Below are positions 2,758-61,879 of a stretch of DNA of 64,000 bases, in pieces (positions within the stretch are counted from its first letter, which is position 1; each line of letters begins with the position of its first letter). The stretch comes from an uncultured Bacilli bacterium. GTDB lineage: Bacteria; Bacillota_I; Bacilli_A; RFN20; CAG-826. The position numbers and the translations under genes were made by a program. The stretch lies in assembly GCA_944363535.1 (NCBI GenBank), contig CALVUG010000001.1, positions 16,461-80,460 on the forward strand, in the 5' to 3' direction. Under the pieces are notes generated by a model that ran no database searches, was not told the origin of the DNA, and worked only from the letters and a program-made list of their open reading frames with translations.

Positions 2758-3519
2758 ATGATCATATGCGTCGATATTGGTAACACCTGCATCGATTTAG
2801 GCATTTTTAAAGAAGGTAAGATTATTAAAACTTATCTTTTTAATACGTCTTTAACGAAGACGGGTGATGAATATTATTTAAGTTTCAATTCACTTTTAAA
2901 CGATAACATCGATATAAAAGATATCGAAGCGATTTATATCGCAAGCGTCGTTCCCTCTATTACTAGAAGGATCGCTCGGGCATTAGAAAAAGTTTTTAAA
3001 GTAAGTCCAACTTTACTTTCTAGACATCTAAAAAGTGGAATAAGAATTAAAATTGATCATCCCCAAGAACTTGGACAAGATTTATTATGCGCAGGGGCAG
3101 CGATAAAAAAGATGAATTTAGCTCCAGCCTTAATTATCGATTTAGGTACTGCGACAAAATTTATCGTCGTCGATAAAAATGAAGATTTAGTTGGCTGCAT
3201 CATCTATCCTGGCGTCAAGGTCAGTTTTGACGCTTTAGCGGAAAAAGCCGCGCAACTTATGGATATTTCCTTTGAAAAACCGGAAAGTGTCATCGGAAAA
3301 AACACTGTCGCTAGTTTAAATAGTGGCGCGGTCAATGGAACGATTGCCCTCATCACTGGCTTAGCGAAAATGATCCAAGATGAACTAGGTTATCCTTTAA
3401 ACAAAATTATTACAGGGGGTTATTCTAATATCTTAAAAGGTCTACTTCCAAGTTCCTATCTATTCGACCATCATCTCGTCTTAAAAGGATTATTTGACAT
3501 CTATGATCGCAACCGATAA
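2758..3519 (+). CDS. coaX: type III pantothenate kinase
   Basis: N-terminal MIICVDIGNTCIDLGIF (DxGNT acetate/sugar-kinase fold motif), ~250 aa. GGAGG SD upstream of the ATG. Confidence 0.85.
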   Translation: MIICVDIGNTCIDLGIFKEGKIIKTYLFNTSLTKTGDEYYLSFNSLLNDNIDIKDIEAIYIASVVPSITRRIARALEKVFKVSPTLLSRHLKSGIRIKIDHPQELGQDLLCAGAAIKKMNLAPALIIDLGTATKFIVVDKNEDLVGCIIYPGVKVSFDALAEKAAQLMDISFEKPESVIGKNTVASLNSGAVNGTIALITGLAKMIQDELGYPLNKIITGGYSNILKGLLPSSYLFDHHLVLKGLFDIYDRNR

Positions 3520-5458
3520 GAAAATACTTCGCATGTGCGTCGATGCGATGTTCATCGCTTTGATCGCTTTATTTACTTTTATTCCTAACCTAGGTTTTAT
3601 TACCATTGGTCCAATTTCTTTTACGACCATTCATCTCATCGTCTTAGTAGGGGCGTTTTTATTCGGCATCATCGAAGGGACGATTTTTGGTTTAGCTTTT
3701 GGCTTATGTTCTTTATTTAAAGCTTTGACGATGCCCGCGAGCGTCGCTGATTACTTATTCGTCAATCCTTTAATTTCTATTCTTCCGCGTGTCATCTTCG
3801 GTTTTTTAGCAGGCGTTTTATTTCAACTTATTAGAAATAAAGTGCATAATAAAGTAGGCTTTAGTGTTTTAAGCGGGGTCTTAAGTGGACTATTAACTTT
3901 ACTTCATACTGCGATGGTCATTCCCTTACTTTACGCTTTTATGCCTGATCAAGATACGACGTTTTTCGCTGTTTTATCCGCTATCTTTACATTGAACTGC
4001 GTCGTAGAAATTTCTTTAGCTATCGTCTTAGTGCCGCTCATCTCGATTCCATTATTAAAGCCAGCCTCAAGATTACGTTTAAAAATGAAGAAAGGTAAGA
4101 AAATGATTATGAAAAAAGTTCCAGCATTCATCGAAGTACAAGAAGAAAATATGTTAAATACGCTTTCTAAGCTCATCGCTATTCCTAGCGTCTATGATCC
4201 TTCTAGCGTTAGTGAACTTCATCCTTATGGAAAAAAAGTAAGCGATGCATTAGCCTTCTTAAAAGAAGAAGCGTTACGTTTAGGCTTTGATAAGGCAAGA
4301 ATTTATGATAACCGCGTCTTAGAAATTGATGTCGGTGGAGAAGGTGACCTCATCGGTATCTTTGCTCACACCGATGTCGTAAGCGCAGAAGGTGAATGGC
4401 ATCATCCACCTTTTAGCCTAACGCGCGTAGATAATTTAATTTATGGGCGAGGGGTCATCGATGATAAAGGACCGCTCGTCTTAATCATGTACGTCTTAAA
4501 AATTTTAAAAGAGCAAAATAAGATTAAAAATCATAAGATAAGACTCGTCATCGGAGGAGATGAAGAAAGAGGTTCATCTTGTTTAAAATATTATTTTGAA
4601 ACGCTTAAAAAAGAGGAACCAAAATATGCTTTTACTCCTGATGCGGATTTCCCTTTGATTTATAGTGAAAAAGGAATTTTACATTTTTATTTAAATCTAG
4701 ATATGCATCTAAAAAAAATTTCTACTATCGAAGCTGGTAATGCTTTTAATATTTGTATCGATAAGGCTACTATAAGACTAAATGATGAAGATAAAAATTT
4801 TATTAAATTTTTAGATGAAAATAAAATTGATTATAATTTAATCGATGATAAGACCATTTCTTTTTTAGGAAAAGCATCGCATGGCTCTTTACCTTTACTT
4901 GGTAAGAATGCCTTTTTAATCGCTATTAAGGTGATAGGTGAATATTACGATGAACTAGAATTAAAAGAACTTTATACCTTACTTTCTGATCAAGAAGGTC
5001 AAGGCTTAAATATCTATATCAAAGATGAAGAATTAGGTTCAACGTCTTTAAATATTGGTTTAGCAAATTATAAAGATAATAAATTAATGATTGGTATCGA
5101 TTACCGTCATCCACATTTAATTACTTACGCCCAAATTGTGGAAAATATTAAAAAGCAAGATAAGTTCGTTTATAAAGAAGATAGTTATGCTTCACCTTTA
5201 TATATTGACCCGAATGGAGTCCTAGTAAAAACTTTACTTGGAGCTTATCAAAAAATAAGTGGTGAAAAAGACGCCAAGCCACTCGCTATTGGGGGAGGGA
5301 CTTACGCAAAAGAAGTGAAAAACTGCGTCGCTTTTGGACCCGCTCTTACCAATAAAGATTGCCATATGCATGGAGCGGATGAAGTTTATGATGTCGAAGA
5401 GATGAAACGAGCTATGCATATTTATTATGAAGCATTATTAAATTTATTGGAATTATGA
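3494..5458 (+). CDS. in-frame fusion: multi-TM ECF S-component-like membrane domain (aa ~1-195) + M20 dipeptidase PepV-like domain (aa ~205-654)
   Basis: One uninterrupted ORF. The N-terminal part has ~6 hydrophobic helices. The C-terminal part has M20 motifs (HTDVV, GRGVIDDKGP, GGDEERGS). The track start is TTG at 3494; the first ATG is at 3503. Internal ATGs at 4085/4103/4109 sit behind an AAAGGTAAG SD-like stretch. Confidence 0.75.
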   Translation: MTSMIATDKKILRMCVDAMFIALIALFTFIPNLGFITIGPISFTTIHLIVLVGAFLFGIIEGTIFGLAFGLCSLFKALTMPASVADYLFVNPLISILPRVIFGFLAGVLFQLIRNKVHNKVGFSVLSGVLSGLLTLLHTAMVIPLLYAFMPDQDTTFFAVLSAIFTLNCVVEISLAIVLVPLISIPLLKPASRLRLKMKKGKKMIMKKVPAFIEVQEENMLNTLSKLIAIPSVYDPSSVSELHPYGKKVSDALAFLKEEALRLGFDKARIYDNRVLEIDVGGEGDLIGIFAHTDVVSAEGEWHHPPFSLTRVDNLIYGRGVIDDKGPLVLIMYVLKILKEQNKIKNHKIRLVIGGDEERGSSCLKYYFETLKKEEPKYAFTPDADFPLIYSEKGILHFYLNLDMHLKKISTIEAGNAFNICIDKATIRLNDEDKNFIKFLDENKIDYNLIDDKTISFLGKASHGSLPLLGKNAFLIAIKVIGEYYDELELKELYTLLSDQEGQGLNIYIKDEELGSTSLNIGLANYKDNKLMIGIDYRHPHLITYAQIVENIKKQDKFVYKEDSYASPLYIDPNGVLVKTLLGAYQKISGEKDAKPLAIGGGTYAKEVKNCVAFGPALTNKDCHMHGADEVYDVEEMKRAMHIYYEALLNLLEL

Positions 5459-14508: not shown

Positions 14509-15075
14509 CTAAGATTTTTTAACCATTAATTTTTTAGTCTTTTTCGTATAGATAAATAAAGTGATGGTTGCACTTATAAATAGCACTAAGAATATAATTG
14601 TGGGAATTAAATATGCGTAATAATAATTATAGAATGCATAATAATACATATTGATCACTACCGGATCGAACTGATTTAAAAAATTAGGGAATAAAACGAC
14701 ATAAATTAAGTAAATAGCGGCGAATATAGATGCGATTAACATCAATATTGCGCCAAAGCGGAAGATGTTAATTTTTAGTTTCAAAATAAATGGATTTAAA
14801 TCGTAATTAATATCGTTAATTTTCTTTTTAATTTTAGTGAGTGAAACTACTAAGAAAATAAAGATTGTAATGGCTAATAAAGAGAAGAAAATAAATAGTA
14901 ATGCATATAAGAAAGCAATATCTAAAGTCCCTAGCCAATAAAAAGATAAAGGATTCATTGCACAATACATGGCACAGTCTGCGTAAATAACAGCAAAAGT
15001 GATGAGAAAAATGCTTACGGTAGCAATAAATATAGCGGAGCCTAAGAGCCATCCAAACATCTTCTTTAGTTGCAT
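14509..15075 (-). CDS. four-TM membrane protein, unknown function (last gene of the 3-gene cassette)
   Basis: 188 aa with four long hydrophobic segments and Lys-rich loops/tail. GGAGGA SD lies inside the end of the upstream gene; 3-nt intergenic gap. Confidence 0.7.
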   Translation of the reverse strand: MQLKKMFGWLLGSAIFIATVSIFLITFAVIYADCAMYCAMNPLSFYWLGTLDIAFLYALLFIFFSLLAITIFIFLVVSLTKIKKKINDINYDLNPFILKLKINIFRFGAILMLIASIFAAIYLIYVVLFPNFLNQFDPVVINMYYYAFYNYYYAYLIPTIIFLVLFISATITLFIYTKKTKKLMVKKS

Positions 15076-15078
15076 AAA

Positions 15079-17358
15079 TTAATCCTCCCAAACATATTTA
15101 AATTCTTTATTGGCATAATTTGTATAGTAGCCAACTTGTTCGCAACTACCTTGCAAGTTTCTATCAATTATGTATTCACCATTGTATTGCAATATTTTAT
15201 TTTTTAAATCGGAAGGCGTTTGTATGAAATTAGCTTCTATCTTTTTATCAGATACTATGTTCCATATCTCAATGGCAAAATGTGAACAATTATAATGTGG
15301 CCACCAGATATTATTTTCATGTTCTAGAATCTCACCTATTTCATTTAGACAAGACATATCATCTGTTACTTCTGTTAATGAATATCTTCCATCCTTAGAT
15401 GACAATATAATAGCTTCAAATATTTTATCAGTTAGCCAAGAAAGGAGTCCAATAAGGCCCTCTAAAAAAGTGCCATGTTCAGATTCGGAATCTGAAGAGC
15501 CAAATGACGAAGAGGAAGATGATGCTATAATCCAAGCTGAGCCTGGTAAACTGCATAGTATCGATGAACTTGATGCTACGACACTAAGAACTAGTTCTTC
15601 ATAATATTCATAATTGTACATAACACCAATGTGCTTTCCTTGGCCAAATAGTCCAATAGTCATCGCTTCAAATGGTTGAAGAATATAGTTTCCTACAAGT
15701 ACAGCGTTAGGAGAATTATTATAAATTTCGATCCAAGAGTGATTATCTCTTGTCGAGATTGTGATATATAACTCGCTTTTGTCAGGATCATTTGAACTAA
15801 ATACGATTCCTAAATCTCCCAACACTACCCGACCTTTATTATTGGTTGAACTTGTCGTTATTTCAGATGATACAATAAATCTAAATTCGGTAGTACCATA
15901 AGGAAAATCATATCGAAATTTATCAGGCATATGTTTTGCACAAGATATACTACCATTATCGCTTCGTCCAGAATTTAAAAAATCAATCCCTCTCACCCAA
16001 TTTTCATTAGAATCTTTGTATTCTAGAGCAACAACATCTTGAAATAAATCAATTCCTTCTACTGTACTCCAAAAACTAATATCGAAATAAATAAAGTTTA
16101 TTGGATAAGGCACTGAATATTTGATATATGCTAGTCCAGCATCTTTTTTGATAGCTGACATAGTTAAATACCATTTTCCAGTTCCTGTAAAGCCTGTTTC
16201 GTTGATGTATCCAGTTCTTAATCTTTCGACATTAACATTTATTCCATCGACATTTAGTGTATGGGCAGATACCTCATTATTATATCTTTGAGTGTATTCA
16301 TAGTCTTCAGATTTTATCGTAATCTTTGCTAATTGTTCTTCAAAGAAAATAAAACCAGAATTTACTCCCATAAGCATTTCGCTATCCATATAATGGATAA
16401 CATCACTACCACCATTATTGCGCAGTTTGAAAAATAGTTGAGTAATTTCGTTACCGCTTGAATCTACGCCTCTCCATAGTTCATAGCCAAAAATATTCAT
16501 ATAGTGATTAGAAAATTCACCAGCATAATTTGTAGTCCACCAAATAACTGGCATGCCTGAATCTATAGATGACACCAGATTAATTATCTTATCTTCGTAA
16601 GGCAAGATTGATGGTGCCAAATCACCATATATTTCCATCATCTTACGATATGTTCCATCAGGATTTACTTCTTCATGTCCTATTCCTGTTGTGATATTGT
16701 AATTAAGAAAAAGTTGGCTGGCACCATTGACTAAATCGAAGGGAAAAGTAAAAGTTCCATCAGGAAAGGTTATACCCATCATTTCTAAATAATTGGCAGG
16801 TACTCCATTTGATGGATATGTTGTAATAGTATTAAAAAGGTCTATGTAGAAATTTTTTCTTTGCTCATTTTCTTCGTAATCTGCGATAAATTGTGAATAT
16901 CCTGCATATTTAACTAGATAATCTATTTGTGTTATTAAAGCTATTGGTCCACACCCGATGTATTCATAATCTTTTATAGTTGATTCTTCTTTAGCATCTT
17001 GTAAAATCGAATTCGATTCGAAAGTATTTGAAGGAATACCACCATAAGTAGTTTCAACCGTGTTGCTTTCATTTTCATCTATTGACCAAATATGTCCTGC
17101 GCCATATTTAGATGTTAAATAAGGCTGTATAAGACCAGAAGTTAGTTTCGTGTCAGTACCGTCAGGAGAATTAGAAGGAAATATATCATTTTCAAAATAA
17201 TATTTCAAATATTGTTCTCTACTCCAATCTGGCGCGGTTACTTCATATTTTTGAGAAGTTTTATTTTCTTCTATTTCTGTATCATTCTTTTCAATACTAA
17301 TAACATTGAATTGCATGACAGAAGTTGAAATTAAAAGTGCAAGTAACATTTTTTTCAT
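15079..17358 (-). CDS. exported multidomain protein with two papain-fold-like Cys/His motif sets (C39-like N-terminal domain; permuted LRAT/PPPDE/NlpC-P60-like C-terminal domain)
   Basis: Signal/anchor MKKMLLALLISTSVMQF. Motifs YIGCGPIALITQ and SNHYMNIFGYE; later DNHSWIEIY and HYNCSHFAIEIW, separated by a Ser-rich tract. The track start TTG 17376 overlaps the upstream stop. The first ATG at 17358 has AAAGGA 10 nt upstream. Confidence 0.75.
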   Translation of the reverse strand: MKKMLLALLISTSVMQFNVISIEKNDTEIEENKTSQKYEVTAPDWSREQYLKYYFENDIFPSNSPDGTDTKLTSGLIQPYLTSKYGAGHIWSIDENESNTVETTYGGIPSNTFESNSILQDAKEESTIKDYEYIGCGPIALITQIDYLVKYAGYSQFIADYEENEQRKNFYIDLFNTITTYPSNGVPANYLEMMGITFPDGTFTFPFDLVNGASQLFLNYNITTGIGHEEVNPDGTYRKMMEIYGDLAPSILPYEDKIINLVSSIDSGMPVIWWTTNYAGEFSNHYMNIFGYELWRGVDSSGNEITQLFFKLRNNGGSDVIHYMDSEMLMGVNSGFIFFEEQLAKITIKSEDYEYTQRYNNEVSAHTLNVDGINVNVERLRTGYINETGFTGTGKWYLTMSAIKKDAGLAYIKYSVPYPINFIYFDISFWSTVEGIDLFQDVVALEYKDSNENWVRGIDFLNSGRSDNGSISCAKHMPDKFRYDFPYGTTEFRFIVSSEITTSSTNNKGRVVLGDLGIVFSSNDPDKSELYITISTRDNHSWIEIYNNSPNAVLVGNYILQPFEAMTIGLFGQGKHIGVMYNYEYYEELVLSVVASSSSILCSLPGSAWIIASSSSSSFGSSDSESEHGTFLEGLIGLLSWLTDKIFEAIILSSKDGRYSLTEVTDDMSCLNEIGEILEHENNIWWPHYNCSHFAIEIWNIVSDKKIEANFIQTPSDLKNKILQYNGEYIIDRNLQGSCEQVGYYTNYANKEFKYVWED

Positions 17359-17372
17359 ATGTGTTTTTCCTT

Positions 17373-17846
17373 TCAAACAATTGTGAATCTATTTTTATAA
17401 TATTCAAAGTATTCGAAGAGCCTAGTTACTTCCTTTAGGCTAAATATTCCTTCCTCTACTTTTTCTTGAATGTTATGAAATGATAAATCCGCTAGGTCAA
17501 AAACAAAAAATTCAATTTTGTGATAGAAATAAAAAATTATGTTCTCGATTTTTAAAGACCATTCAGAAGTATCTTCAAATACTTGCCAAACGCAAAAGAT
17601 GCTTAATTTATGTTCATCGCTAGCAGTGGATGATAAAAATTCATAATAATCGACATCTTCTAATTTTGCATAAGGATCTTTAGGAAGCACAAACTGTTCA
17701 TAATATTCTTGTATCATGATTTCATCTGCTTCAGTTTTAGGGTGTTCACTTAGTAAAATGCCTATAAAATAACAAGATGATAAAGTAAAAGGTATTAATA
17801 AAAATATGCTTAGTTTAGCTAAGAGAAAATGAAATTTATTTCTCAT
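17373..17846 (-). CDS. small putative lipoprotein / membrane-anchored protein (first gene of the cassette)
   Basis: MRNKFHFLLAKLSIFLLIPFTLSSC has a lipobox-like L-S-S-C. 157 aa, no recognisable motif. Its stop overlaps the next ORF's TTG. Confidence 0.6.
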   Translation of the reverse strand: MRNKFHFLLAKLSIFLLIPFTLSSCYFIGILLSEHPKTEADEIMIQEYYEQFVLPKDPYAKLEDVDYYEFLSSTASDEHKLSIFCVWQVFEDTSEWSLKIENIIFYFYHKIEFFVFDLADLSFHNIQEKVEEGIFSLKEVTRLFEYFEYYKNRFTIV

Positions 17847-17859
17847 AATTTAAATATAA

Positions 17860-17889
17860 CAAAAAAAGTGGATTATTGAAACCCACTTT
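17860..17889 (-). terminator. rho-independent terminator of infC-rpmI-rplT
   Basis: Minus strand: AAAGTGG-11 nt loop-CCACTTT followed by TTTTTTTG, 25 nt after the rplT stop. Confidence 0.75.
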
Positions 17890-21730: not shown

Positions 21731-22381
21731 TTAATATAGGATTTCGATGCCGTAGAATAAAAGGCTCACGTCGTAATAAGCGTTTCTTTCTTCATCGAAG
21801 TTTTTGACGGTATTCACGTAAGAAAATTCATAATATGAATAATATGAGTCAAGAGTGATAGAAAAAAAAGTTCCACTTAGGGCGTCAGTGATGGTGTATT
21901 CCTTTATTAGATTATGATTTGAGTCATAGGCCTTTAATAAGTAATGGTCTTTACTAGGAGAAGAAGTGCCGCTTGTTTGAAGGGGTATAAATTCAAAATC
22001 ACGGTAGATGTTAATGACATGCTCCCTTTGCTTATTTTGCGCTTTTTCATCGCACTTAAAAATGATATTTAAGTCATCATTATCTAAATATAGATAATCG
22101 ACTTCATTTTCTTCGTTCGTTTTAAACTCTAGAATCGTTTCACTAGTGGGAGGAATTATTTCCCACGTCGCTGTCTTTGCTTCAGCATCGAAAGTTAAAG
22201 AAAGAGCGATAGCGTAACTATTCAAGGTCAAGACGACGTAAGCGACGATGATGATAACCGTAATTAAAAGTAAGACGGAAAAGCTTACGATGGTGGTGAT
22301 GACGTTACGGCGGTAGTTGTCGCCAGGAAATCTACTTGACATGATCGAAGGCGTAGACAGCCCCTCCGATGAGGCCAGCAT
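21731..22381 (-). CDS. single-TM membrane protein, unknown function
   Basis: TM VITTIVSFSVLLLITVIIIVAYVVLTL followed by a ~150-aa Tyr/Asn/Glu-rich domain. Start uncertain (ATG 22381 or 22342); both overlap the 3' end of the ROK kinase gene. Confidence 0.55.
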   Translation of the reverse strand: MLASSEGLSTPSIMSSRFPGDNYRRNVITTIVSFSVLLLITVIIIVAYVVLTLNSYAIALSLTFDAEAKTATWEIIPPTSETILEFKTNEENEVDYLYLDNDDLNIIFKCDEKAQNKQREHVINIYRDFEFIPLQTSGTSSPSKDHYLLKAYDSNHNLIKEYTITDALSGTFFSITLDSYYSYYEFSYVNTVKNFDEERNAYYDVSLLFYGIEILY

Positions 22382-26390: not shown

Positions 26391-28238
26391 TTACTTATCC
26401 TCCTCTATTTGTTTATTATACTTGAAAAGTTTATCAATTTCACTATCGATATTATCATCTTCTGGATCGGAGAAGTAAGCGACGTAACCACGGTTATAAG
26501 TGGCACTTTCGTTATTGAAACGTTCACCGAACTTATCGATCAGTTCACTTTGACGTGAATTATATTCGTGTCGCGATTTAGCGAAACGTTTGATGGAAAT
26601 AGGGGTATCTTGGACGAGTGGAAGATATTCAGTCCAGTGGACTGGGACAGCGTGCGGGTGACCGTCTCCTCCCATGACCGTCACGTATTCGACGCGTGGG
26701 ATGCCTTCGAAAGAATGCGCTCTTACGGTTACTTGGTCAGTCTTACCTCTCTTACTAGGATATAAAACCTTCAATATAGCGCGAGTGATACTGGCTGGAT
26801 GAAGGAAACGGTGGTAATCGAAATGGTTGACGATCGCTTCTTCATCGTAAGAAGTATAGTTACGCATGTAGTTTTTCTTATAAATATATTCGAAAGGTTT
26901 ATTTTGTTGGTAAAGTGGAATGGAAAGTAAGGGGGCTAAATCGAAGTAGACGCATTTGAAATAATTATCGATGTAAGCGATGAAATTTTCTTTCGTCTTA
27001 TTGACGTTATAATGGATGTAGTTACGTGGTTCACCTGAGATATCAAAAGATTGAGAATGGCTACTTGAGATGTAGTTAAGTTCCTTTCTTTTTAAGAAAG
27101 TAAAATCATCGCCAAAGGGGACAGAATTAGTGATGAGTTCGATGAGATTTTGCTGGGCAAGGGGAGTGAAAAGAAGACGATATTGAACTTCGTGATCACG
27201 GTCTAAACCACCGAATAAAGCTTCAAACTTTTCGTTGGTCATCGGGGTAAATTTCTTCCCTTCTTTTAGTGCCTTTTCAGCATATTTTCTAATATCATCA
27301 GCTTTATCTTCGACGAATTTATCGATGGATTTTTCATTTTTGACGTTCACTCCGCAGGGGCGTCTAGAAAAACTTAAATCAGGAGCAGCGTCGTTAGCGT
27401 AAACAAGATGGGTATAAGTACTATAATCTGGTGCAGGTCTTCTAATAGAAGCGGTGAGCACTTGGCTTCTTACGACCGTCCTATATCTTCCGTTTCCATC
27501 GTAGACTCTTTCCGTCCAAGTGATAGGTAAAGTACCGGTGTAAACTTTATCGATCATGTTCATATTTAAATTTCTTAACATGAGGAAAGGATTACCGACG
27601 ATGGAACCAGACATGACAAAAAGCGTCGAAGCGGTTTCTGAATCGTTATCTAAAAAACCATATTTTTCGTGCATGTAATCAAATTTTTTGATGTCGAAAT
27701 AATCATCGATTTGGATGAGAGGAACGCTCTTACGGATGATTTCACTTGGCATCGCTTCATCGAATAATGACAGTAGTGGGCTAATTTGACTAACGACCGC
27801 TTGATAAGATTCATCTCTTTTCTTATTGGCCTCGTCGCTAGCCTTTTGATGTTCTTTTATTTTCTTATTAGAGTAAGCAAGGATTAACACTAAGAAAAGA
27901 ATCGCTAAGGCGAAGCCAGGGATGGTCATACTTAAGCCGATCGTTAAGTCTTGAAGTTCGACTATGAAATATATACCTACCGCTCCGACGATAGCGAGGG
28001 CTATAGCCATGATGATGAAGAAAGTTCTAAGTCCTTTTGATCCTTTTAGCTTATTATTTTTTTCTTCCGCATCCGCGGCATTTTTTTCGTATTGTTTAGA
28101 AAGCATCTCATTTTCGTCTTGGCTCACGCCAGAACGTCTTAAGACGTCATCGAAATATTTAGATGTATAATCGAGGAGGTCGACTCTCACTTTACTTTCG
28201 TACATCTTCCTCGGTTCTAAAATCGCGTTATCGTCCAT
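26391..28238 (-). CDS. two-TM membrane protein with large uncharacterised C-terminal domain, operonic with lemA
   Basis: 615 aa: ~70-aa charged N-terminus, two TMs (FFIIMAIALAIVGAVGIYFIV; MTIPGFALAILFLVLILAY), ~490-aa domain with no motif I recognise. AGAGGTGA SD. 3-nt gap to lemA. Confidence 0.7.
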   Translation of the reverse strand: MDDNAILEPRKMYESKVRVDLLDYTSKYFDDVLRRSGVSQDENEMLSKQYEKNAADAEEKNNKLKGSKGLRTFFIIMAIALAIVGAVGIYFIVELQDLTIGLSMTIPGFALAILFLVLILAYSNKKIKEHQKASDEANKKRDESYQAVVSQISPLLSLFDEAMPSEIIRKSVPLIQIDDYFDIKKFDYMHEKYGFLDNDSETASTLFVMSGSIVGNPFLMLRNLNMNMIDKVYTGTLPITWTERVYDGNGRYRTVVRSQVLTASIRRPAPDYSTYTHLVYANDAAPDLSFSRRPCGVNVKNEKSIDKFVEDKADDIRKYAEKALKEGKKFTPMTNEKFEALFGGLDRDHEVQYRLLFTPLAQQNLIELITNSVPFGDDFTFLKRKELNYISSSHSQSFDISGEPRNYIHYNVNKTKENFIAYIDNYFKCVYFDLAPLLSIPLYQQNKPFEYIYKKNYMRNYTSYDEEAIVNHFDYHRFLHPASITRAILKVLYPSKRGKTDQVTVRAHSFEGIPRVEYVTVMGGDGHPHAVPVHWTEYLPLVQDTPISIKRFAKSRHEYNSRQSELIDKFGERFNNESATYNRGYVAYFSDPEDDNIDSEIDKLFKYNKQIEEDK

Positions 28239-29729: not shown

Positions 29730-30614
29730 ATGGATAAATTACGCCTCAATTTAGACGAACAAAGTTTAAAAGAAGAAGAGAAGAAACTTCTCGATCAAAT
29801 GCTCGGGGATGAAACTTTTTTAAATCGTTTGAGCGATTTAGGTATCGATGAACAAATTATCTTCGATAATTTAAGTACGATTTTTACCAGTTTTGATGAC
29901 TATCTTATCTGCAAAAATTGTCCAGGGCTTAACAAATGTCCAAAAGACGTTAAGGGTTCCATCATCGAATTAGAATTACAAGGTCAATTCGTCGAAAGAA
30001 ATATTTCTCGCTGCGCTTTAAAAGAAAAAAATGACTTACTAACTTCATATTACGAAATTAGAGATTTTGACGATAAGTTATTAACTCTCAGCCCTGCTAA
30101 TTTAAATGACGATAAGGCGACGAAAGAACTACTCAAATATTTTTACGATTTTTCTAAGCATGAATTTACTTCGAATTGGCTTTATTTGATAGGGGGAACG
30201 AGCAAACGTAAATTAGATACCTTAATTGGTGTTTATAATAAGTTTGCTTCAAAATATCATCTACTTGCGAGCGTCATCAATTTTCCTAAACAATGCCGCA
30301 AATTGGCGAATTTATATTTTAATGAAAAGGAACGTTTTGAATTTATTTTTAATAAATTAGTGGACGTCCCATTCCTTTTCTTATATGACTTCGGTGAAGA
30401 ATATAAAAATGAAACGTTAAGGGATAACGTTTTAATTCCGCTTTTAAGAGCAAGAAAAGAAAAGGAAACTTTAACTATTTTTATTAGTGATTTTAGCGCG
30501 GAAGATATCGCAAATATGTACAACTTTAACTACGCTTCAAAAGCTAGATCTTTACAAATTAAAAAACTATTAAGTAGTGCGAAAGTTATCGATTTCGGTG
30601 AATTAAAAGTCTAA
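29730..30614 (+). CDS. dnaI: primosomal helicase-loader DnaI-like protein with degenerate ATPase motifs
   Basis: N-terminal Cys cluster (CKNCPGLNKCP...RC) and DnaI-like AAA+ region. Walker A reads LYLIGGTSKRKL and Walker B reads FLFLYDFGEE. Start taken at the first ATG behind the GAGGA SD. Confidence 0.65.
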   Translation: MDKLRLNLDEQSLKEEEKKLLDQMLGDETFLNRLSDLGIDEQIIFDNLSTIFTSFDDYLICKNCPGLNKCPKDVKGSIIELELQGQFVERNISRCALKEKNDLLTSYYEIRDFDDKLLTLSPANLNDDKATKELLKYFYDFSKHEFTSNWLYLIGGTSKRKLDTLIGVYNKFASKYHLLASVINFPKQCRKLANLYFNEKERFEFIFNKLVDVPFLFLYDFGEEYKNETLRDNVLIPLLRARKEKETLTIFISDFSAEDIANMYNFNYASKARSLQIKKLLSSAKVIDFGELKV

Positions 30615-31982
30615 ATCTTTCTTAATTTTTAAGACTTCTTTTAATAGATTATTTTCGTCTTTATTATTTTGAATAATATAATCGCATTCATCTAAACGAT
30701 CTAAGAAGTGATTATGGCTGTCGTAATAATTTTTAAAGTCTAAAGATTTATCGCGTTCTAAGATAAATTTGTTTCTTCTTTCTTCTAAAACGTTAACGCC
30801 TACGATGACATCGAACATATTTTCCATCTTGGCGTCGAATAATAAAGGCACTTCGATGACGACATTTTCTTTATGTTTTCTAAAGATTTTTAAAATTTTT
30901 TCTTTGAGTGGTGGATAAAGAATATTTTTTAATTTCTTATCTAATTTTTCATCTTCAAAGATAGCTTTACGAATGAAAGCAAAATCGATCGTATCAATCT
31001 TAAATAAAATTTTAATTTTATCTTGGACAACTTTTTCTTCGTAAAGTTCCTTGATGATAGCATCGCTTGAATAGATGTGATATTTTTCATCTTCGAATAG
31101 TTGAGTGACCTTAGATTTACCTGAACCATATAGACCTGTGATGGCGATAAATTTTTGACCTTTTTTCTTTTGACAACGCGAACAATAAGTCGTTCCTCTT
31201 CCATTAACTTTCATAAATTTTAGTGGCTTAGCGCAGTTTGGGCATGGTTCATCGGCTTTTCCATAAACTAAAAGATCAGTTTGAAAGTGACCATCGACGT
31301 CATCGATCGATTTGTAAGTTTTGATAGTTGAACCACCTTTTAAGATGGCAGCGTTTAAAACCTCGATAGCGTTTTTTAAGATGACTTTTGTCTCCTCTAA
31401 GGTGATAAATTTAGCTTTGGTGGAAGGATTAATTTTACTTCTAAAAAGCGTTTCATCGACGTAGATATTACCAAGACCAGACATCACTTCTTGATTTAAT
31501 AAGACGGTTTTAATTTCCGTTTCCTTATGCTTTTTAATATTGTTAAATAATTCATTTTCATCTAAGAAAAATGGTTCTTTACCGACTTTTTTGATGAAAT
31601 CGAGGTTTTGATAATGCAATTCATCGCTTAGATAATACATGCCAAACATCCTCGAATCACGGTAGATGAGAGCATTACCGTCATCTAGATGAAAGATGAT
31701 ACGAGCGTGCGATTCAATTTCATCATTTGGATGTTTAAATTGATATTTTCCTTCCATCCTTAGATGGTTAATTAACACTAAATCATCACTAAGATGGAAA
31801 AATAAATATTTACCGTGTCTAGTAATCTTTAAAAAAGTTTTATCGATGAGTGAATTTTTAAAACAATCTAGGTCACTTTTGATAAGTTTTGGCTTTAATA
31901 TATCTATAGATATAATTTTCTTTCCGATGATAAGTGACTCTAGAGCTTTTTTAATCGTTTCAACTTCCGGTAGTTCTGGCAT
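30603..31982 (-). CDS. fusion protein: formamidopyrimidine-DNA glycosylase (aa 1-~272) + dephospho-CoA kinase (aa ~275-459)
   Basis: MPELPEVET N-terminus, H2TH region, zinc finger CPNCAKP...YCSRCQ. Then P-loop IAITGLYGSGKSKV and EVPLLFD of CoaE. Single ORF. Confidence 0.85.
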   Translation of the reverse strand: MPELPEVETIKKALESLIIGKKIISIDILKPKLIKSDLDCFKNSLIDKTFLKITRHGKYLFFHLSDDLVLINHLRMEGKYQFKHPNDEIESHARIIFHLDDGNALIYRDSRMFGMYYLSDELHYQNLDFIKKVGKEPFFLDENELFNNIKKHKETEIKTVLLNQEVMSGLGNIYVDETLFRSKINPSTKAKFITLEETKVILKNAIEVLNAAILKGGSTIKTYKSIDDVDGHFQTDLLVYGKADEPCPNCAKPLKFMKVNGRGTTYCSRCQKKKGQKFIAITGLYGSGKSKVTQLFEDEKYHIYSSDAIIKELYEEKVVQDKIKILFKIDTIDFAFIRKAIFEDEKLDKKLKNILYPPLKEKILKIFRKHKENVVIEVPLLFDAKMENMFDVIVGVNVLEERRNKFILERDKSLDFKNYYDSHNHFLDRLDECDYIIQNNKDENNLLKEVLKIKKDLDF

Positions 31983-53906: not shown

Positions 53907-53934
53907 TTGGTAGAAAGTGGTAGAAAGTGGTATG
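53907..53934 (+). promoter_or_regulatory. MraZ operator-like direct repeats
   Basis: TTGGTAGAAA / GTGGTAGAAA / GTGGTATG: three GTGG-core units with exact 10-bp spacing. They lie downstream of a TTTACA-18-TATAAT promoter candidate (53868-53897) and run into the mraZ ATG. Confidence 0.7.
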
Positions 53935-54366
53935 TTCTTTGGTTCCTATTTCCATTCATTAGACGATAAAGGACGTGTCGTCATTCCTGCGAAGATGAGA
54001 GAAGAAGCTGGACTTCGTATCTACATCATGCGTGGCCATGACGGAGCGTTAGAAATTTATCGTAAGGAAACTTTCGAAGCTAAATTAGAAGAAATTGCTA
54101 CTTTACCATATAACCAAAAAAGTTCTCGTGACTTTGTTAGACTCGCCCTCTCGAGCGTCGTCGAATTAGACGTCGATCGTCAGGGGAGAGTGCAAATCCC
54201 CCAACAAGTGATAAATGATTATCACATCAGCAAAGATGTGGCGATCATCGGGGTTTACGATCATATCGAAATATGGTCGCGTGACAAATGGCTAAGCTAC
54301 GTGAAAGATGGTGAGGAATCTTACGATGATAACGCAGAACGACTCCCAACAAATAACGTACGCTGA
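53932..54366 (+). CDS. mraZ: transcriptional regulator MraZ
   Basis: MFFGSYFHSLDDKGRVVIP and second SpoVT/AbrB-like repeat DRQGRVQIP. The track start (GTG 53917) lies inside the repeats and looks over-extended. Confidence 0.92.
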   Translation: MFFGSYFHSLDDKGRVVIPAKMREEAGLRIYIMRGHDGALEIYRKETFEAKLEEIATLPYNQKSSRDFVRLALSSVVELDVDRQGRVQIPQQVINDYHISKDVAIIGVYDHIEIWSRDKWLSYVKDGEESYDDNAERLPTNNVR

Positions 54367-55309
54367 AGAGAACACTTACCAGCACGTCCCAGTTCTTTTA
54401 GACGAAGTCATCACGGGACTTAACATCAATCCTGACGGCATCTACGTCGATTTGACCTTAGGCCGGGCAGGGCACGCTCAAGCGATTTTAGCAAAGCTAA
54501 ACAAAGGACTTCTCGTCGGCATCGATCGTGACTTAGAAGCGATAAGAGCCGCCAAAGAAATCTTAGCGAAGCAAAAACGCCTTTACATCATCAGAAACGC
54601 AAACTTCAAAGACGTGGACCTCATCTTAGATGAATTAAATATTCGTAAGATCGATGGTGCTTTATTAGATTTAGGCGTTTCTTCTCCTCAATTTGATGAT
54701 CCTAACCGTGGATTCTCCTATCGTTACGATACAAGACTTGACATGCGGATGGATCAAAAAGAACATCTTACAGCTTACGATGTCATCAATACTTATAGCG
54801 AAGAAAAACTCGCTCATATATTCAAAGAATATGGCGATGAAAAATTTGCGAAAAGTATCGCTAAGAACATCGTCAAAGCACGTAAAATAAAACCGGTCGA
54901 AACGACGTTTGCCTTAGTGGATATCATCAAAGATAGTAAACCGAGTCGCGAACTAAGGAAAGTCGGTCACCCCGCCAAACAAGTCTTCCAAGCTTTAAGA
55001 ATTGAAGTTAACGACGAATTTAGCGCTTTAAAAGAAGTGTTAGCGAAGATAACGGATAGACTTAACGTCAATGGTCGACTCGCTATCATCACCTTCCATT
55101 CTGGTGAAGACCGCATCGTCAAAACTTACTTCAAGAAATTAGCGGTCATCGAAGGCGATAGGAATGCACCTCCCACAGATCCAAGTAAACTAGAACAACC
55201 AAAATTCCGTCTAGTGAACAAGAAAGCCATCGAACCATCGAAAGAAGAAGTTGATAGTAATCACCGCGCGAGTAGCGCAAAACTTCGTATCATCGAACGT
55301 ATTGGTTAA
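54326..55309 (+). CDS. rsmH: 16S rRNA (cytosine1402-N4)-methyltransferase
   Basis: HVPVLLDEV, DLTLGRAGHA, DLGVSSPQFD, FHSGEDRIVK. ATG 54326 is preceded by GGTGAGGA. Overlaps mraZ by 41 nt. Confidence 0.9.
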   Translation: MITQNDSQQITYAEENTYQHVPVLLDEVITGLNINPDGIYVDLTLGRAGHAQAILAKLNKGLLVGIDRDLEAIRAAKEILAKQKRLYIIRNANFKDVDLILDELNIRKIDGALLDLGVSSPQFDDPNRGFSYRYDTRLDMRMDQKEHLTAYDVINTYSEEKLAHIFKEYGDEKFAKSIAKNIVKARKIKPVETTFALVDIIKDSKPSRELRKVGHPAKQVFQALRIEVNDEFSALKEVLAKITDRLNVNGRLAIITFHSGEDRIVKTYFKKLAVIEGDRNAPPTDPSKLEQPKFRLVNKKAIEPSKEEVDSNHRASSAKLRIIERIG

Positions 55310-55342
55310 ATACTTACCTTAACCTAGGAAAGGAGAAAGATT

Positions 55343-55561
55343 ATGAAAGACAAATTAGTGAAATTCAATCATAAAGCGACTTACTACCGTATGCGTAAAA
55401 TTGGTGTCGCTTTCGCTTTCGTCTCGGCTTTTTCACTTTCCGTCGTCCTTCCGGTCTCGGTCTCCTTAGTGAACGCCGCGAAGGCAGATAATGAACAAGA
55501 AGTAGCCGAAGAAAAAGAAGCTAATGAACTCATCATGGATGTAGATTCTTATTATTGTTAA
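55343..55561 (+). CDS. small single-TM protein in the FtsL position of the dcw cluster
   Basis: 72 aa with TM IGVAFAFVSAFSLSVVLPVSVSL. AAAGGAGAAAG SD. No sequence motif recognised. Confidence 0.55.
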   Translation: MKDKLVKFNHKATYYRMRKIGVAFAFVSAFSLSVVLPVSVSLVNAAKADNEQEVAEEKEANELIMDVDSYYC

Positions 55562-55631
55562 GCTATAAAATAATAACTTTTCCCTCTATCTAACTATATT
55601 CCAAACCTTAACCTAATAAGAATTTGACTTG

Positions 55632-55664
55632 AAGGCTGTGCATTCTCTCCCACAGCCTTTTTTA
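55632..55664 (+). terminator. rho-independent terminator between the small TM gene and ftsA
   Basis: AAGGCTGTG-10 nt loop-CACAGCCTT followed by TTTTTT. Confidence 0.8.
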
Positions 55665-55767
55665 GTAGTTTAGTAATTAATTAGTAGTTTTTTATATACA
55701 TTTTCACAACTTTGTAAAATTGTGTTGTCTAAGCGTTAGTAAAAGTCTATAATTTTAATAGAAAATT

Positions 55768-56994
55768 ATGGATAGACCTATTGCTGCCTTAGAAATTACG
55801 TCCAAAGCCGCGAAGCTCATCGTCGGTTACGTCATCGATGACGAAGTGTGCGTCGTCTATTCTTCGATGCTGCCTTTAGAAGGGGCCATCATCGATGGGG
55901 AGATTAGAGATTTTGAAAAGGTGAGTGACGTCCTCAAGACTTTAGCGAACATCAAAGACGAATCGAAAAAATTAAAAATTAACATCTCCGAAGTCGTCTT
56001 AGGTTTACCGCCTATCGGCTTAGAAGTCTATCAAAATGATAAAGTGACGAACGTCGTAAGCGATGATGGGCGCATTTCACGTATCGACATCACTAATGTC
56101 ATATCGCTCGTGAAGAAAGAACAAGTGAAGACTGTCGATAAAATAGTGGACATCATTCCTGACGTCTTCATCCTCGATCACGACCAAGTTTTTTATACCC
56201 CACCGATAGGTAAGGTTTCTAATTCGCTCGCGCTCAATGCGAAAGTGCATACGTTACCGAAAAATATCATCGATGGTTACCTAAAAGTTTGCGAAAATGC
56301 TTCCTTACGTGTGAAGCGTATGATGGTGACGCCTTACGCCTTAGGGGAACTTTTAAAAACTTATAAAGATATTCCTGACCATTATTTACTTCTCGATATG
56401 GGGGCTAATCTTACGACTATTTCTCTCATGGGAAATAAATCTAGATTATTCGCTTCAACTTACATCGCCAAAGGCGGGGATGATTTGACGCGTTTCCTCG
56501 CTGATAAGTTTCATCTCGATTTTAAGGTCGCTAACGACTTAAAAGAACTTTATGGCGATGACCTTAGTCCGGTTTCTCCAGATATTTCTATCTTAGAAAA
56601 TGAACCGAATAAGGCTTTATATCTCAAAGATTTTAAAGAAGCGGTCGAAAGTTGGCTGAGCGCTTATACTAACGATATAAAGCTTGCCTTAAATGTCTTA
56701 CTTAAAGAATATGATGAACGTTACTATTTACTTCCCTTACTCCTTAGTGGAGGCACAAGTTTACTTAACGGCATCGAACTATATTTTTCAAAAGTTTTCA
56801 AAGATAACGCTATCAAAGCGATCGTACCTACTTCCTTAGGGGCAAGAGACCCATCTTACTTCAATTGTTTAGGTCTTATCAAAGCGGCCTCAATTTATCG
56901 CGGGACGTTAGAAGATGAAAGAATTAGAGTCTCACCTTTAAATCGTAAAGGTAATGAAAATAAATCGTACAGTGAAATGGAAGATGAACTTTAG
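55768..56994 (+). CDS. ftsA: cell division protein FtsA
   Basis: Actin-like fold pattern (IAALEITSKAAKLIVGY, LLLDMGANLTTISL, LSGGTSLLNG). 408 aa. Confidence 0.88.
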   Translation: MDRPIAALEITSKAAKLIVGYVIDDEVCVVYSSMLPLEGAIIDGEIRDFEKVSDVLKTLANIKDESKKLKINISEVVLGLPPIGLEVYQNDKVTNVVSDDGRISRIDITNVISLVKKEQVKTVDKIVDIIPDVFILDHDQVFYTPPIGKVSNSLALNAKVHTLPKNIIDGYLKVCENASLRVKRMMVTPYALGELLKTYKDIPDHYLLLDMGANLTTISLMGNKSRLFASTYIAKGGDDLTRFLADKFHLDFKVANDLKELYGDDLSPVSPDISILENEPNKALYLKDFKEAVESWLSAYTNDIKLALNVLLKEYDERYYLLPLLLSGGTSLLNGIELYFSKVFKDNAIKAIVPTSLGARDPSYFNCLGLIKAASIYRGTLEDERIRVSPLNRKGNENKSYSEMEDEL

Positions 56995-57008
56995 GAGGAA
57001 TTTCATAG

Positions 57009-58145
57009 ATGGATGCATACAATTTAGATAATTTCGAACCAGCCGCCCGTATCATCGTCATCGGCGTCGGTGGAGCGGGCAATAATGCGGTCAATCGTAT
57101 GATTGATGATAATATTTCTAACGTCGAATTTTTCGTCGCTAATACGGATAAACAAGCTTTATCAACTTCGCGCGCTAAAAATCGTTTAATTCTCGGCCAA
57201 GAAATCACTAATGGTTTAGGGGCTGGGGGCGATCCTAACGTCGGAAAGATAGCCGCGGAAGCAAGCGAAGATGACATTAAAAAGATCGTCGAAGGAGCGA
57301 ACATGGTCTTCATCGCCGCGGGTATGGGTGGAGGAACTGGAACGGGAGCCGCACCAGTCATCGCAAAAATTGCTAAAGATGCAGGGGCGCTCGTCATCGC
57401 TATCGTCACTAGACCTTTCACTTTCGAAGGAAAGGAAAGAATCGCTAATTCGGTCGAAGGTTTAAACAATTTAAAAGCTGTCGTCGACGCTATCATCGTC
57501 GTCAGTAACGATAAGTTACTCATGGTGAACGGTAACGCCTACATTAGCGATGCATTCTCCGAATCTGACCGCGTTTTAGCGCAATCCGTCAAAACGGTCA
57601 CCGATTTAATTTTGATGCCCGCTATCATCAACTTAGACTTTGCGGATGTCAAAAGAACATTAAAAGATAGCGGAGTCGCCCTCATCGGCTTCGGCGTTGG
57701 AGAAGGGCCAAACCGTGCACAAGATGCCGCCCAAAGTGCGATCAATTCACCTTTGCTTGAAACTTCTATTAGCGGAGCAAGAAGAGCGATCATCGCTGTC
57801 ACTTGTGGGGCGAAAGTTTCTCTTTATGAAGCACAAGAAACCGTCAATCGATTAGTCGAAGCTGCCGGAAGTGGCATCAACGTCTTATTCGGGGTGAGCA
57901 TCAATTCTGAACTAGAAGATCAAATTCTTGTGAGCGTCATCGCTAGCGATTTCATCGAGGATATCGATTTCACTGACGTACCAAAATACCAAGCACCTTT
58001 GAAGCCTTACGTCAATACCGCTAGCGCTATTAATGATAATAACGTCACGCTTGGACTCGATGATAATAGCAAAGTCGAAGAAAGAAGTGACGAGGAGGAA
58101 GAAGATATTCTTCCACGCTATTTTAAAGATTTACCTCGTTCTTAA
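57009..58145 (+). CDS. ftsZ: cell division protein FtsZ
   Basis: GVGGAGNNAVNRM and tubulin signature GMGGGTGTGAAPVIA. AGGAGG SD. Confidence 0.97.
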   Translation: MDAYNLDNFEPAARIIVIGVGGAGNNAVNRMIDDNISNVEFFVANTDKQALSTSRAKNRLILGQEITNGLGAGGDPNVGKIAAEASEDDIKKIVEGANMVFIAAGMGGGTGTGAAPVIAKIAKDAGALVIAIVTRPFTFEGKERIANSVEGLNNLKAVVDAIIVVSNDKLLMVNGNAYISDAFSESDRVLAQSVKTVTDLILMPAIINLDFADVKRTLKDSGVALIGFGVGEGPNRAQDAAQSAINSPLLETSISGARRAIIAVTCGAKVSLYEAQETVNRLVEAAGSGINVLFGVSINSELEDQILVSVIASDFIEDIDFTDVPKYQAPLKPYVNTASAINDNNVTLGLDDNSKVEERSDEEEEDILPRYFKDLPRS

Positions 58146-61206: not shown

Positions 61207-61879
61207 ATTTAAAACGTACGGGATGTGGTTCTTTTTATCTTTTATTTGGCTTTTCGTCTTACTTTTATTAGTGGACTTAATGACTAAATTACTATGTCAA
61301 GCTTATATAAGTGAAGGAACGCAAATATATTTGATCCCTAATTTCCTTTACGTCACCTTAACTTATAATACTGGAATGGCGTGGGGCTTATTTGGCGGAG
61401 AGACAGGAAGAATTATTTTGACGGTCGTCTCTTGGCTTGCTTCCATTATCATCATCGCTATTTACATCTGGAAATTTAAGAAACTAAATAAATTTTGGAA
61501 AGCGATGCTCGCTATGCTTTTAGCGGGGACGCTTGGCAATTTGATCGATAGAACATTTTATCCTAGTGGCGTCATCGATTGGATTGGCTTCCAATTTGGT
61601 TCTTATTTTTTCCCCGTCTTCAACTTAGCGGATTCTTATCTCGTCGTCGCTATCATCATCATCGTCATCTATCTTATCGTCGAATGGATTAAAGAATACG
61701 TTGAAGAAAAGAAAAAGGCTCCGAAGGAAGTTAAAACTTCTAATAATGATAAAAGTCATAAGAAAGCTATTCTTTCCCAAGATGAAATCGCCAAATTAGC
61801 GAAACAATTAGAAGAAGAAAAAGTTTCGAAAGAATTAGAGATTAAAGATGAAGAAAATAAAGAAGAATCTCAAGGTTAG
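61196..61879 (+). CDS. lspA: lipoprotein signal peptidase II with long charged C-terminal tail
   Basis: TYNTGMAWGLF, GNLIDR and FNLADS motifs. ATG 61196 behind GAGGAAGA overlaps the ileS end. ~60 extra Lys/Glu-rich residues at the C-terminus. Confidence 0.88.
   Translation: MKNKFKTYGMWFFLSFIWLFVLLLLVDLMTKLLCQAYISEGTQIYLIPNFLYVTLTYNTGMAWGLFGGETGRIILTVVSWLASIIIIAIYIWKFKKLNKFWKAMLAMLLAGTLGNLIDRTFYPSGVIDWIGFQFGSYFFPVFNLADSYLVVAIIIIVIYLIVEWIKEYVEEKKKAPKEVKTSNNDKSHKKAILSQDEIAKLAKQLEEEKVSKELEIKDEENKEESQG

Follow-up and report, generated by a model that had tools for sequence, protein, structure and literature searches.

Peptidase_C39_2 domains (PF13529) are listed as catalytic domains in endolysins of phages infecting Gram-positive bacteria (PMC8223927). 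Enzymes with the His ahead of the Cys include the PPPDE/DeSI proteins (Peptidase_C97), which are cytosolic and eukaryotic or viral, and the LRAT/H-rev107 (PLAAT) proteins, which are permuted NlpC/P60 enzymes and carry a C-terminal membrane helix. The staphylococcal lipoprotein N-acyltransferase LnsA, a protein of 189 aa with a cleaved signal peptide, has a His60/Cys143 pair (PMC13559823). Here, we analyzed a gene located in a 64,000-nt stretch of contig CALVUG010000001.1 (positions 16,461 to 80,460, forward strand; assembly GCA_944363535.1) from an uncultured Bacilli bacterium, referred to below as the window. The encoded protein consists, in this order, of a Peptidase_C39_2-like domain (module 1), a β-sandwich (module 2), and a His/Cys module (module 3). 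A first-pass annotation had proposed that this exported protein carries two different sets of papain-like catalytic motifs; the observation was confirmed and its interpretation supported in part. On balance, and with modest confidence, we read the protein as a Sec-exported three-module hydrolase of a Mollicutes-like gut bacterium, with two thiol heads, a sandwich, and a lipoprotein partner.

The gene shares its frame with a longer open reading frame (ORF) that starts at a TTG at position 17376 (15079–17376, minus strand, 765 aa), and its likely start is the ATG at 17358, which has an AAAGGA ribosome-binding site 8 nt on its 5′ side. Residue numbers follow the 765-aa ORF by default; the 759 numbering, used where indicated, is 6 lower. 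All four candidate catalytic residues were found at the codons assigned to them by the first-pass annotation, in the contexts YIGCGPIAL (C142), SNHYMNIFGY (H291), DNHSWIEIY (H546), and HYNCSHF (C697). A full-length AlphaFold2 model, with an alignment of 38 sequences as input, reached a predicted local distance difference test (pLDDT) value of 82.8 and a predicted template modeling (pTM) score of 0.82. The gene comprises the following features.

15079–17358, minus strand: enzyme gene, coding for 759 aa if read from the ATG; the span includes the stop codon
17287–17358, minus strand: putative N-terminal export signal MKKMLLALLISTSVMQFNVISIEK, read from the sequence; a helix (2–19) followed by a low-confidence linker in the model
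16330–17241, minus strand: Peptidase_C39_2-like domain (clan CA), aa ~46–349, from sub-threshold PF13529 and family-level matches
16951–16953, minus strand: codon of Cys142, proposed nucleophile, invariant in 38 of 38 homologues and first residue of helix 136–152 (759 numbering)
16504–16506, minus strand: codon of His291, proposed general base, directly before strand 286–298 in the model
16414–16416, minus strand: codon of Asn321 (N315 in 759 numbering), candidate third member of the triad, nearly invariant
15799–16326, minus strand: central β-sandwich, aa ~351–526, all-β, pLDDT mostly >85 in the AlphaFold2 model
15082–15798, minus strand: C-terminal His/Cys module, aa 527–765, separable, belonging to a large unannotated secreted family
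15739–15741, minus strand: codon of His546, invariant in a 57-sequence alignment and first residue of strand 22–29 in the model of the module
15718–15720, minus strand: codon of Asn553, invariant in the same alignment, at the far end of the His strand
15397–15591, minus strand: Ser-rich insert, aa ~596–660, which includes a hydrophobic or amphipathic segment FLEGLIGLLSWLTDKIFEAIIL; pLDDT <50
15286–15288, minus strand: codon of Cys697 in an N-C-S-H-F motif, invariant and first residue of helix 173–184 in the model of the module

The hydrophobic helix at the N terminus is compatible with the export that had been claimed for the enzyme and, judging from the sequence, could be either a cleaved signal peptide or a signal anchor. 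A word-index search retrieved 38 homologues (22 to 48% identity), which came from metagenomes or metagenome-assembled genomes (MAGs) throughout, without a single protein name; their genomes, of gut and rumen origin, bear the labels Bacilli, Anaeroplasmataceae, Coprobacillus, and Clostridia. Only 10 columns of their alignment are invariant, C142 being one of them. Past aa ~520, the C-terminal module occurs in just 12 of the 38, and all 12 retain both H546 and C697; the remaining homologues end after the middle domain or bear unrelated tails of 75 to 120 aa. Since most homologues do without the C-terminal module, the core architecture is that of a peptidase joined to a sandwich, with the His/Cys module as an add-on.

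The N-terminal half had been described as C39-like or papain-like, and the family-level evidence agrees with this description. PF13529 was detected in 37 of the 38 homologues at E ≤ 0.1 (best E, 1.3e-5) and is given by precomputed annotation for P0015, P0035, and P0036, and one homologue also matched Peptidase_C10. Next to the invariant C142, H291 is retained in 36 of the 38, and the two outliers carry a His one column off (DHSAVAYGY). The model places the Cys at the N terminus of a helix and the His base on a strand, and the arrangement is therefore that of papain; judged from secondary structure alone, C142 and H291 may be in contact. Asn321 is located just past strand 304–313, the hairpin partner of the His strand, and the strand register would bring it near His291. 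Module 1 is like Peptidase_C39_2 in having the Cys ahead of the His by ~150 residues, the x-G-C-G-P and H-Y-x-x-I-x-G-Y motifs, and the helix that starts at the Cys. It differs in its fusion to a β-sandwich and a second His/Cys module, and the gene has neither an ABC-transporter context nor bacteriocin leader processing. Two results weigh against this assignment: the match of PF13529 to the window protein itself (15.6 bits, E 0.025, aa 257–293) did not reach the gathering cut-off of 24 bits, and a Foldseek search with the full model was dominated by the sandwich, calpain (1qxp; E 6.9e-3, probability 0.28) being the sole papain-like entry. Nonetheless, we consider it very probable that the N-terminal half is an active clan CA peptidase. 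Given that PF13529 domains are catalogued in endolysins (PMC8223927), a peptide stem is, besides a protein, a possible substrate.

The middle region, proposed earlier to be a β-rich binding module, is indeed all-β in the model and strongly conserved. It is the best conserved part of the protein and contains 6 of the 10 invariant columns of the family (Y359, R381, S401, N507, G509, and R510). Foldseek matched this part of the whole model weakly to CBM51, CBM32, discoidin, laminin LN, and gingipain Kgp adhesin domains, at probabilities ≤0.93 and E ≥ 2.8e-3 with low template modeling (TM) scores, and the isolated sandwich had no Pfam match at E ≤ 10. The likeness to CBM32, CBM51, discoidin, and the cleaved adhesin of Kgp thus lies in a ~175-aa all-β sandwich on an extracellular protease and in Foldseek probabilities of 0.8 to 0.93 (2ygl, 2j7m, 4lks, 2wuh, and 3km5). 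The window sandwich is set apart from them by E values of only 3e-3 to 5e-2, by the low TM scores and missing Pfam match, and by a signature of its own, made up of D-Y-x-Y, R-L-R-T-G-Y-I, and N-K-G-R.

A tblastn search of phage genomes returned a single record, Anaeroplasmataceae phage NatCom_34063 (PV036447.1) from human feces, in which the sandwich is present twice, each time on a secreted protease (encoded at L138, 6810–9008, and L139, 43119–45632). The XTK84686 gene of this phage lies directly after that of the holin, adjoins a lipoprotein gene on its 3′ side, and encodes a protein with a signal peptide in which a V8/glutamyl-endopeptidase-like domain (PDB 4jcn, E 8e-6; Pfam Trypsin, E 7.6e-4) is followed by a sandwich that is 27% identical to that of the window (pairwise E 1e-13) and by a C-terminal Cys...His domain. 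The latter domain (YNCYAYAL ... DYHWYRQ) showed a weak match to DUF7689. XTK84677 bears a subtilisin-like domain (PDB 1bh6, E 4e-11), with the sandwich at its C-terminal end. This lineage and its phage therefore have the sandwich joined to three catalytic types of protease, which supports the reading of module 1 as a protease. So far, it has been seen only on proteases of Anaeroplasmataceae-like bacteria and one phage of theirs, and our inference is that it serves for targeting, as a substrate exosite or as a cell surface binder.

Word-index searches with profiles of the C-terminal module found almost nothing, and it was an exhaustive hidden Markov model (HMM) search that revealed its family: 814 clusters (50% identity) at E ≤ 1e-3, of which 466 at E ≤ 1e-10. 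Among the best 146 of the 814 matches, 122 are ≤300 aa long and mostly have a signal peptide or lipobox, while the other 24 are multidomain proteins in which the His/Cys module is usually C-terminal. Ten multidomain members were scanned, several of which carry a ricin-type lectin or Big_2 domain and one of which gave a weak trypsin-like match. The bulk of the family is made up of stand-alone secreted proteins of Firmicutes, about 200 to 250 aa long. A degenerate DNA pattern recovered 37 true members from reference genomes, including cultured walled Firmicutes, with hosts among Paenibacillus, Neobacillus, Cohnella, Anoxybacillus, Peptoniphilus, Oscillibacter, Eggerthia, Youxingia, and Claveliimonas; one Streptomyces, Saccharibacteria and Parcubacteria MAGs, and many gut Clostridia also carry the module. 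No Pfam or NCBIfam model reached its threshold in 57 members, an NCBIfam scan gave zero matches for the enzyme, the neighboring proteins, or the module family members, and no source-database name was found for ten clusters of the family. A phage or plasmid origin of the module was considered and rejected, as it had zero matches in phage and plasmid collections.

The 57 aligned sequences of the module have a mean column identity of 19%, and H546, N553, and C697 are the only invariant residues, followed by the nearly invariant G545, G584, N588, E590, N696, F700, N706, and P721. The core of the module model exceeds a pLDDT of 90. Asn553, located at the other end of the strand that His546 starts, is therefore not likely to orient that His. 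The Ser-rich insert that had been noticed to split the module is real: it forms a loop between the β half and the helical half, is predicted to be disordered in the models, and is confined to fused proteins, where its length varies (short in P0008 and P0012; absent from P0013 and from stand-alone members). It holds a semi-conserved hydrophobic stretch (W-S-x-G-S-F-G-x-x-S-W-L) and might serve as a flexible lid, as a site of processing, or as a segment that interacts with a membrane. Taken together, we are strongly inclined to regard module 3 as a Cys/His enzyme.

Whether its fold is that of a permuted papain-like enzyme, as the first-pass annotation had it, is a separate matter. The His-then-Cys order, the conservation of the two residues, and the helix that starts at N-C-x-x-F all speak for this reading, and an aromatic residue stands 5 to 6 positions ahead of C697. 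PPPDE (PF05903) was matched in 4 of the 57 members at E ≤ 1, below its cut-off of 29.2 bits (P0182, 21.1 bits, E 3.1e-4; P0129, 19.4 bits), and the best LRAT (PF04970) match, again P0182, had 14.9 bits (E 0.034) and did not reach the cut-off of 24.3 bits; both models span the Cys of P0182 and P0129 at those profile positions where the catalytic Cys would be expected. An hhalign comparison of the module family with DeSI-1 aligned 55 columns at a P value of about 1e-3 and placed C697 opposite Cys108. The reference sequences used were a DeSI-1 identical to PDB 3ebq and a PLAAT3 verified against 4dot. The likeness to PPPDE/DeSI hence extends from the order of the residues and the Cys in N-C-x-x-F at a helix start to a strand-helix-loop-(aromatic)-x5-N-C-x-x-F-helix-(I/T)P segment that falls on DeSI-1 residues 78–134, and LRAT/PLAAT proteins share the His-then-Cys order and the N-C motif.

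Several results, however, count against a permuted papain-like fold. The scores for PPPDE/DeSI were all sub-threshold, PF05903 did not match the window module itself, and the hhalign probability against DeSI-1 was only 17 to 22%, contributed by the Cys half alone. The His half, compared as the N-terminal half alone, gave no signal against DeSI-1 (P 0.14) or PLAAT3, nor did the module family as a whole show similarity to PLAAT3 (P 0.14). A Foldseek search of PDB and BFVD with the model of module 3 returned noise (TM about 0.2) and no PPPDE, LRAT, or NlpC/P60 structure. The top match was a proteasome subunit (E 0.04, TM 0.2), and PPPDE (3ebq and 2wp7) and LRAT-like (4dot and 4dpz) structures, although present in PDB, were not retrieved: 3EBQ and 2WP7 were not among the best 50 matches, and 4DOT, 4DPZ, 2KYT, and YiiX-type structures appeared neither in the PDB output nor among the viral models of BFVD. 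Nor was a solved relative found in PDB by searches that started from the protein, from the profile of the whole family, or from that of the module, and weak Lamin-tail-domain matches on the His hairpin of 6 of the 57 members are a reminder that short motif matches can mislead. A Lamin-tail domain was itself rejected, the matches being sub-threshold and 25 residues long and the corresponding structures not having been retrieved by Foldseek; PDB matches to Atg19, a bromodomain, and HPF were dismissed as chance matches.

The module further departs from PPPDE/DeSI in its additional invariant Asn553 and its Y-N-x-E motif, and in being secreted and bacterial. Where LRAT/PLAAT proteins have their membrane helix, it instead ends in β-strands and a polar tail (KEFKYVWED). 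NlpC/P60 (PF00877), with the reversed Cys/His order, matched neither the window protein nor any of the 57 members. Stand-alone members resemble LnsA, which we compared by description only, in size, export, and His-Cys spacing, and the gene of one of them (P0041, 223 aa; L092, 70–1639) overlaps by ~30 nt the next gene downstream, which encodes a polytopic membrane protein of 309 aa, a pairing reminiscent of LnsA/LnsB; no CPBP-type partner was detected. Thus, the residue order, the conservation, and the helix start stood, and the fold assignment, for which no profile or Foldseek match reached threshold level, did not. We lean slightly toward a remote permuted papain-like fold, which is probable but not demonstrable, and module 3 is not to be filed in PF05903, PF04970, or PF00877.

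The enzyme gene is flanked by two genes for membrane-associated proteins and a possible terminator.

17373–17846, minus strand: lipoprotein gene, 157 aa, lipobox LSSC, directly upstream of the enzyme gene and ending 14 nt before its ATG
14509–15075, minus strand: membrane protein gene, 188 aa, about 4 transmembrane segments, starting 3 nt past the enzyme stop
17865–17889, minus strand: terminator-like hairpin between rplT and the lipoprotein gene

Since the hairpin stands between rplT and the lipoprotein gene, it suggests that the lipoprotein, enzyme, and membrane protein genes form a unit apart from infC-rpmI-rplT. Housekeeping genes surround it: one flank has thiI, an iscS-like gene, and ezrA, and the other has rplT-rpmI-infC-thrS, pfk, pyk, polA, and dnaE. 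The window also contains lspA, at 61142–61879. The 188-aa protein is probably cotranslated with the enzyme; it had no family match in Pfam or NCBIfam and is not found beside the homologues elsewhere (L088 and L090). It was also considered as a conserved LnsB-like partner, and this was rejected given its absence from other loci and the lack of a CPBP (PF02517) match.

The lipoprotein has homologues of 149 and 150 aa, likewise with lipoboxes, which are encoded immediately upstream of other enzyme genes of the long, three-module form (L088/L089, E 4e-17; L090, E 7e-10), in two neighborhoods that are otherwise unrelated, namely, hrcA-grpE-dnaK and nifU-pepF. An upstream lipoprotein is thus found in three of four distinct long-form loci, L002 being the one without. 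Short-form genes (L003 to L006) are preceded by a different lipoprotein family of ~185 aa, present as tandem paralogues that are 70 to 84% identical in Anaeroplasmataceae MAGs (three in L005, 4216–5979; two in L004, 4862–5978) and as a single related copy each in L003 and L006. Behind stand-alone module 3 genes (L094 to L137), 11 of 36 loci have a gene for a conserved β-rich protein of ~120 aa with an N-terminal membrane anchor (for instance, L096, 3756–4130, and L124, 4367–4810). None of these partners, lipoproteins and ~120-aa anchored protein alike, had a Pfam match, and the window lipoprotein had no NCBIfam match. Because small anchored partners accompany both C39_2/sandwich genes and stand-alone module 3 genes, a role as inhibitor, immunity protein, or tether would fit them. 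As for close relatives of the locus, the enzyme is 100% and the lipoprotein 99.4% identical to their counterparts on MAG contig CASFRI010000015.1 (L001/L009), and the best segment of ThrS, encoded ~2 kb away from the enzyme, shares only 96% identity with that contig. Identity to a second MAG, CASDXP01, is 97%. The window and CASFRI010000015.1 seem to represent closely related strains or a case of local mosaicism.

The host is plausibly a wall-less, Mollicutes-like bacterium related to Acholeplasmatales. Its ThrS is 58 to 63% identical to proteins of MAGs labeled as Acholeplasmatales, Bacillales, Coprobacillus, and Erysipelotrichaceae. The division cluster at 53917–58145 (plus strand) consists of mraZ-rsmH-ftsA-ftsZ, an arrangement typical of Mollicutes, with about 460 nt separating rsmH from ftsA and no ftsL, pbp, mur, mraY, or ftsW in between, and none of those window ORFs that were scanned against Pfam proved to be a wall synthesis gene (mur, pbp, ftsW, or mraY). 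The first-pass annotation had gone on to argue that an NlpC/P60-type domain would have no substrate on a wall-less producer itself. While the wall-less premise is plausible in view of the minimal cluster and the Acholeplasmatales-like relatives, the argument built on it loses force, given how common the module family is in walled Firmicutes. Elsewhere in the window, a 459-aa ORF (30603–31982, minus strand) encodes a complete Fpg (formamidopyrimidine-DNA glycosylase) fused to CoaE (dephospho-CoA kinase), and a 654-aa ORF (3494–5458, plus strand) combines an ECF-transporter S component (aa 13–183) with an M20 peptidase domain (aa 290–649). Two further ORFs, of 615 aa (26391–28238, minus strand) and 216 aa (21731–22381, minus strand), had no Pfam match at E ≤ 1e-5.

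The three-module hydrolase could work as follows. Sec would export the enzyme, and the sandwich would dock it on a common target, be it a glycoconjugate at a surface or a protein substrate. The C39_2-like head would cut peptide bonds through a thioester on Cys142, assisted by His291 and probably Asn321, and the second head, with Cys697 and His546, may carry out a further hydrolytic or acyl-transfer step through an acyl-thioester intermediate. The lipoprotein, presumably made together with the enzyme, would probably restrain or tether it at the membrane of the producer. Host glycoproteins, neighboring cells, or the cell's own surface proteins are possible targets.

Other explanations were weighed against this scheme, two of which concern the nature of module 3. 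It may be a Cys/His enzyme with a fold of its own, unrelated to papain-like enzymes, in which case the N-C-x-x-F helix start would be convergent. The empty Foldseek searches of PDB and BFVD despite a confident core, the lack of a Pfam or NCBIfam family, the dissimilar His half, and an hhalign probability that does not exceed 22% would all be expected from such a fold. Yet in several members the PPPDE and LRAT HMMs both match one and the same region around the Cys, with the register correct, and a nucleophile at a helix N terminus with a His at a strand start is a papain-like arrangement; moreover, Foldseek often misses small remote α/β folds, and the query bore a 65-residue disordered insert. 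We therefore regard a separate fold as rather unlikely. A module without catalytic activity, whose His, Asn, and Cys bind a metal or stabilize a binding domain and which would leave a single-headed protease, appears far less probable still. The weak Lamin-tail-domain-like matches on the His hairpin, the want of a validated enzyme relative, and the lack of module 3 in most C39_2/sandwich family members could be cited in its favor. On the other hand, a lone invariant Cys at a helix N terminus after a near-invariant Asn, combined with a lone invariant His, typifies thiol enzymes, metal sites normally need three or four ligands, and an existence mostly as stand-alone secreted proteins and lectin fusions is how catalytic domains behave.

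The remaining alternative keeps both heads and changes their purpose, making the protein a Sec-secreted toxin for use against other bacteria, with two lytic heads and the upstream lipoprotein as its immunity protein. A small membrane-anchored partner gene does adjoin the enzyme gene in most loci, the tandem lipoprotein paralogues of L004 and L005 resemble an immunity gene array, and the ~120-aa anchored protein follows stand-alone module 3 genes in the 11 of 36 loci mentioned above. In addition, PF13529 is catalogued as an enzymatically active endolysin domain (PMC8223927), and a host that is probably wall-less would be unharmed by a wall-directed head. By the same token, however, a wall-less host needs no immunity to a wall-directed enzyme. 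Neither an LXG, Rhs, or WXG delivery domain nor a polymorphic C-terminal cassette structure was seen, the gene is located among housekeeping genes, and the partners match no known immunity family in Pfam or NCBIfam (PADLOC was not searched). Moreover, the phage proteins with a copy of module 2 are proteases and not wall hydrolases. A weapon of this kind thus seems doubtful to us, and the surface hydrolase with a lipoprotein partner remains the reading that we favor.

In a bolder reading, which we consider rather improbable, module 3 would define a new and widespread family of Sec-exported thiol enzymes of Gram-positive bacteria, with at least 814 clusters, whose fold either is new or forms a fourth, very remote branch among the permuted papain-like enzymes. 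Its members, with their small dedicated membrane-anchored partners, might act as secreted antibacterial effectors accompanied by immunity proteins, or as LnsA-like extracellular acyltransferases on lipids or lipoproteins, and in this lineage one of them would have been added to a surface protease whose targeting module also occurs on proteases encoded by phage.

What is new here is an unnamed His/Cys family, a protease-associated sandwich common to the bacteria and a phage, and a conserved pairing with a lipoprotein. If both heads are active, the window protein would be a two-warhead extracellular thiol hydrolase from poorly known, probably wall-less gut bacteria, and its C-terminal head would provide the first functional handle on a large secreted family without a database name. 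That a cysteine protease shares its sandwich with subtilisin-like and V8-like ones suggests that this lineage has its own means of directing proteases to one surface or substrate, which may be relevant to feeding, to competition, or to phage lysis of wall-less gut bacteria, and the conserved lipoprotein partner suggests that a mechanism of control or immunity is built in.

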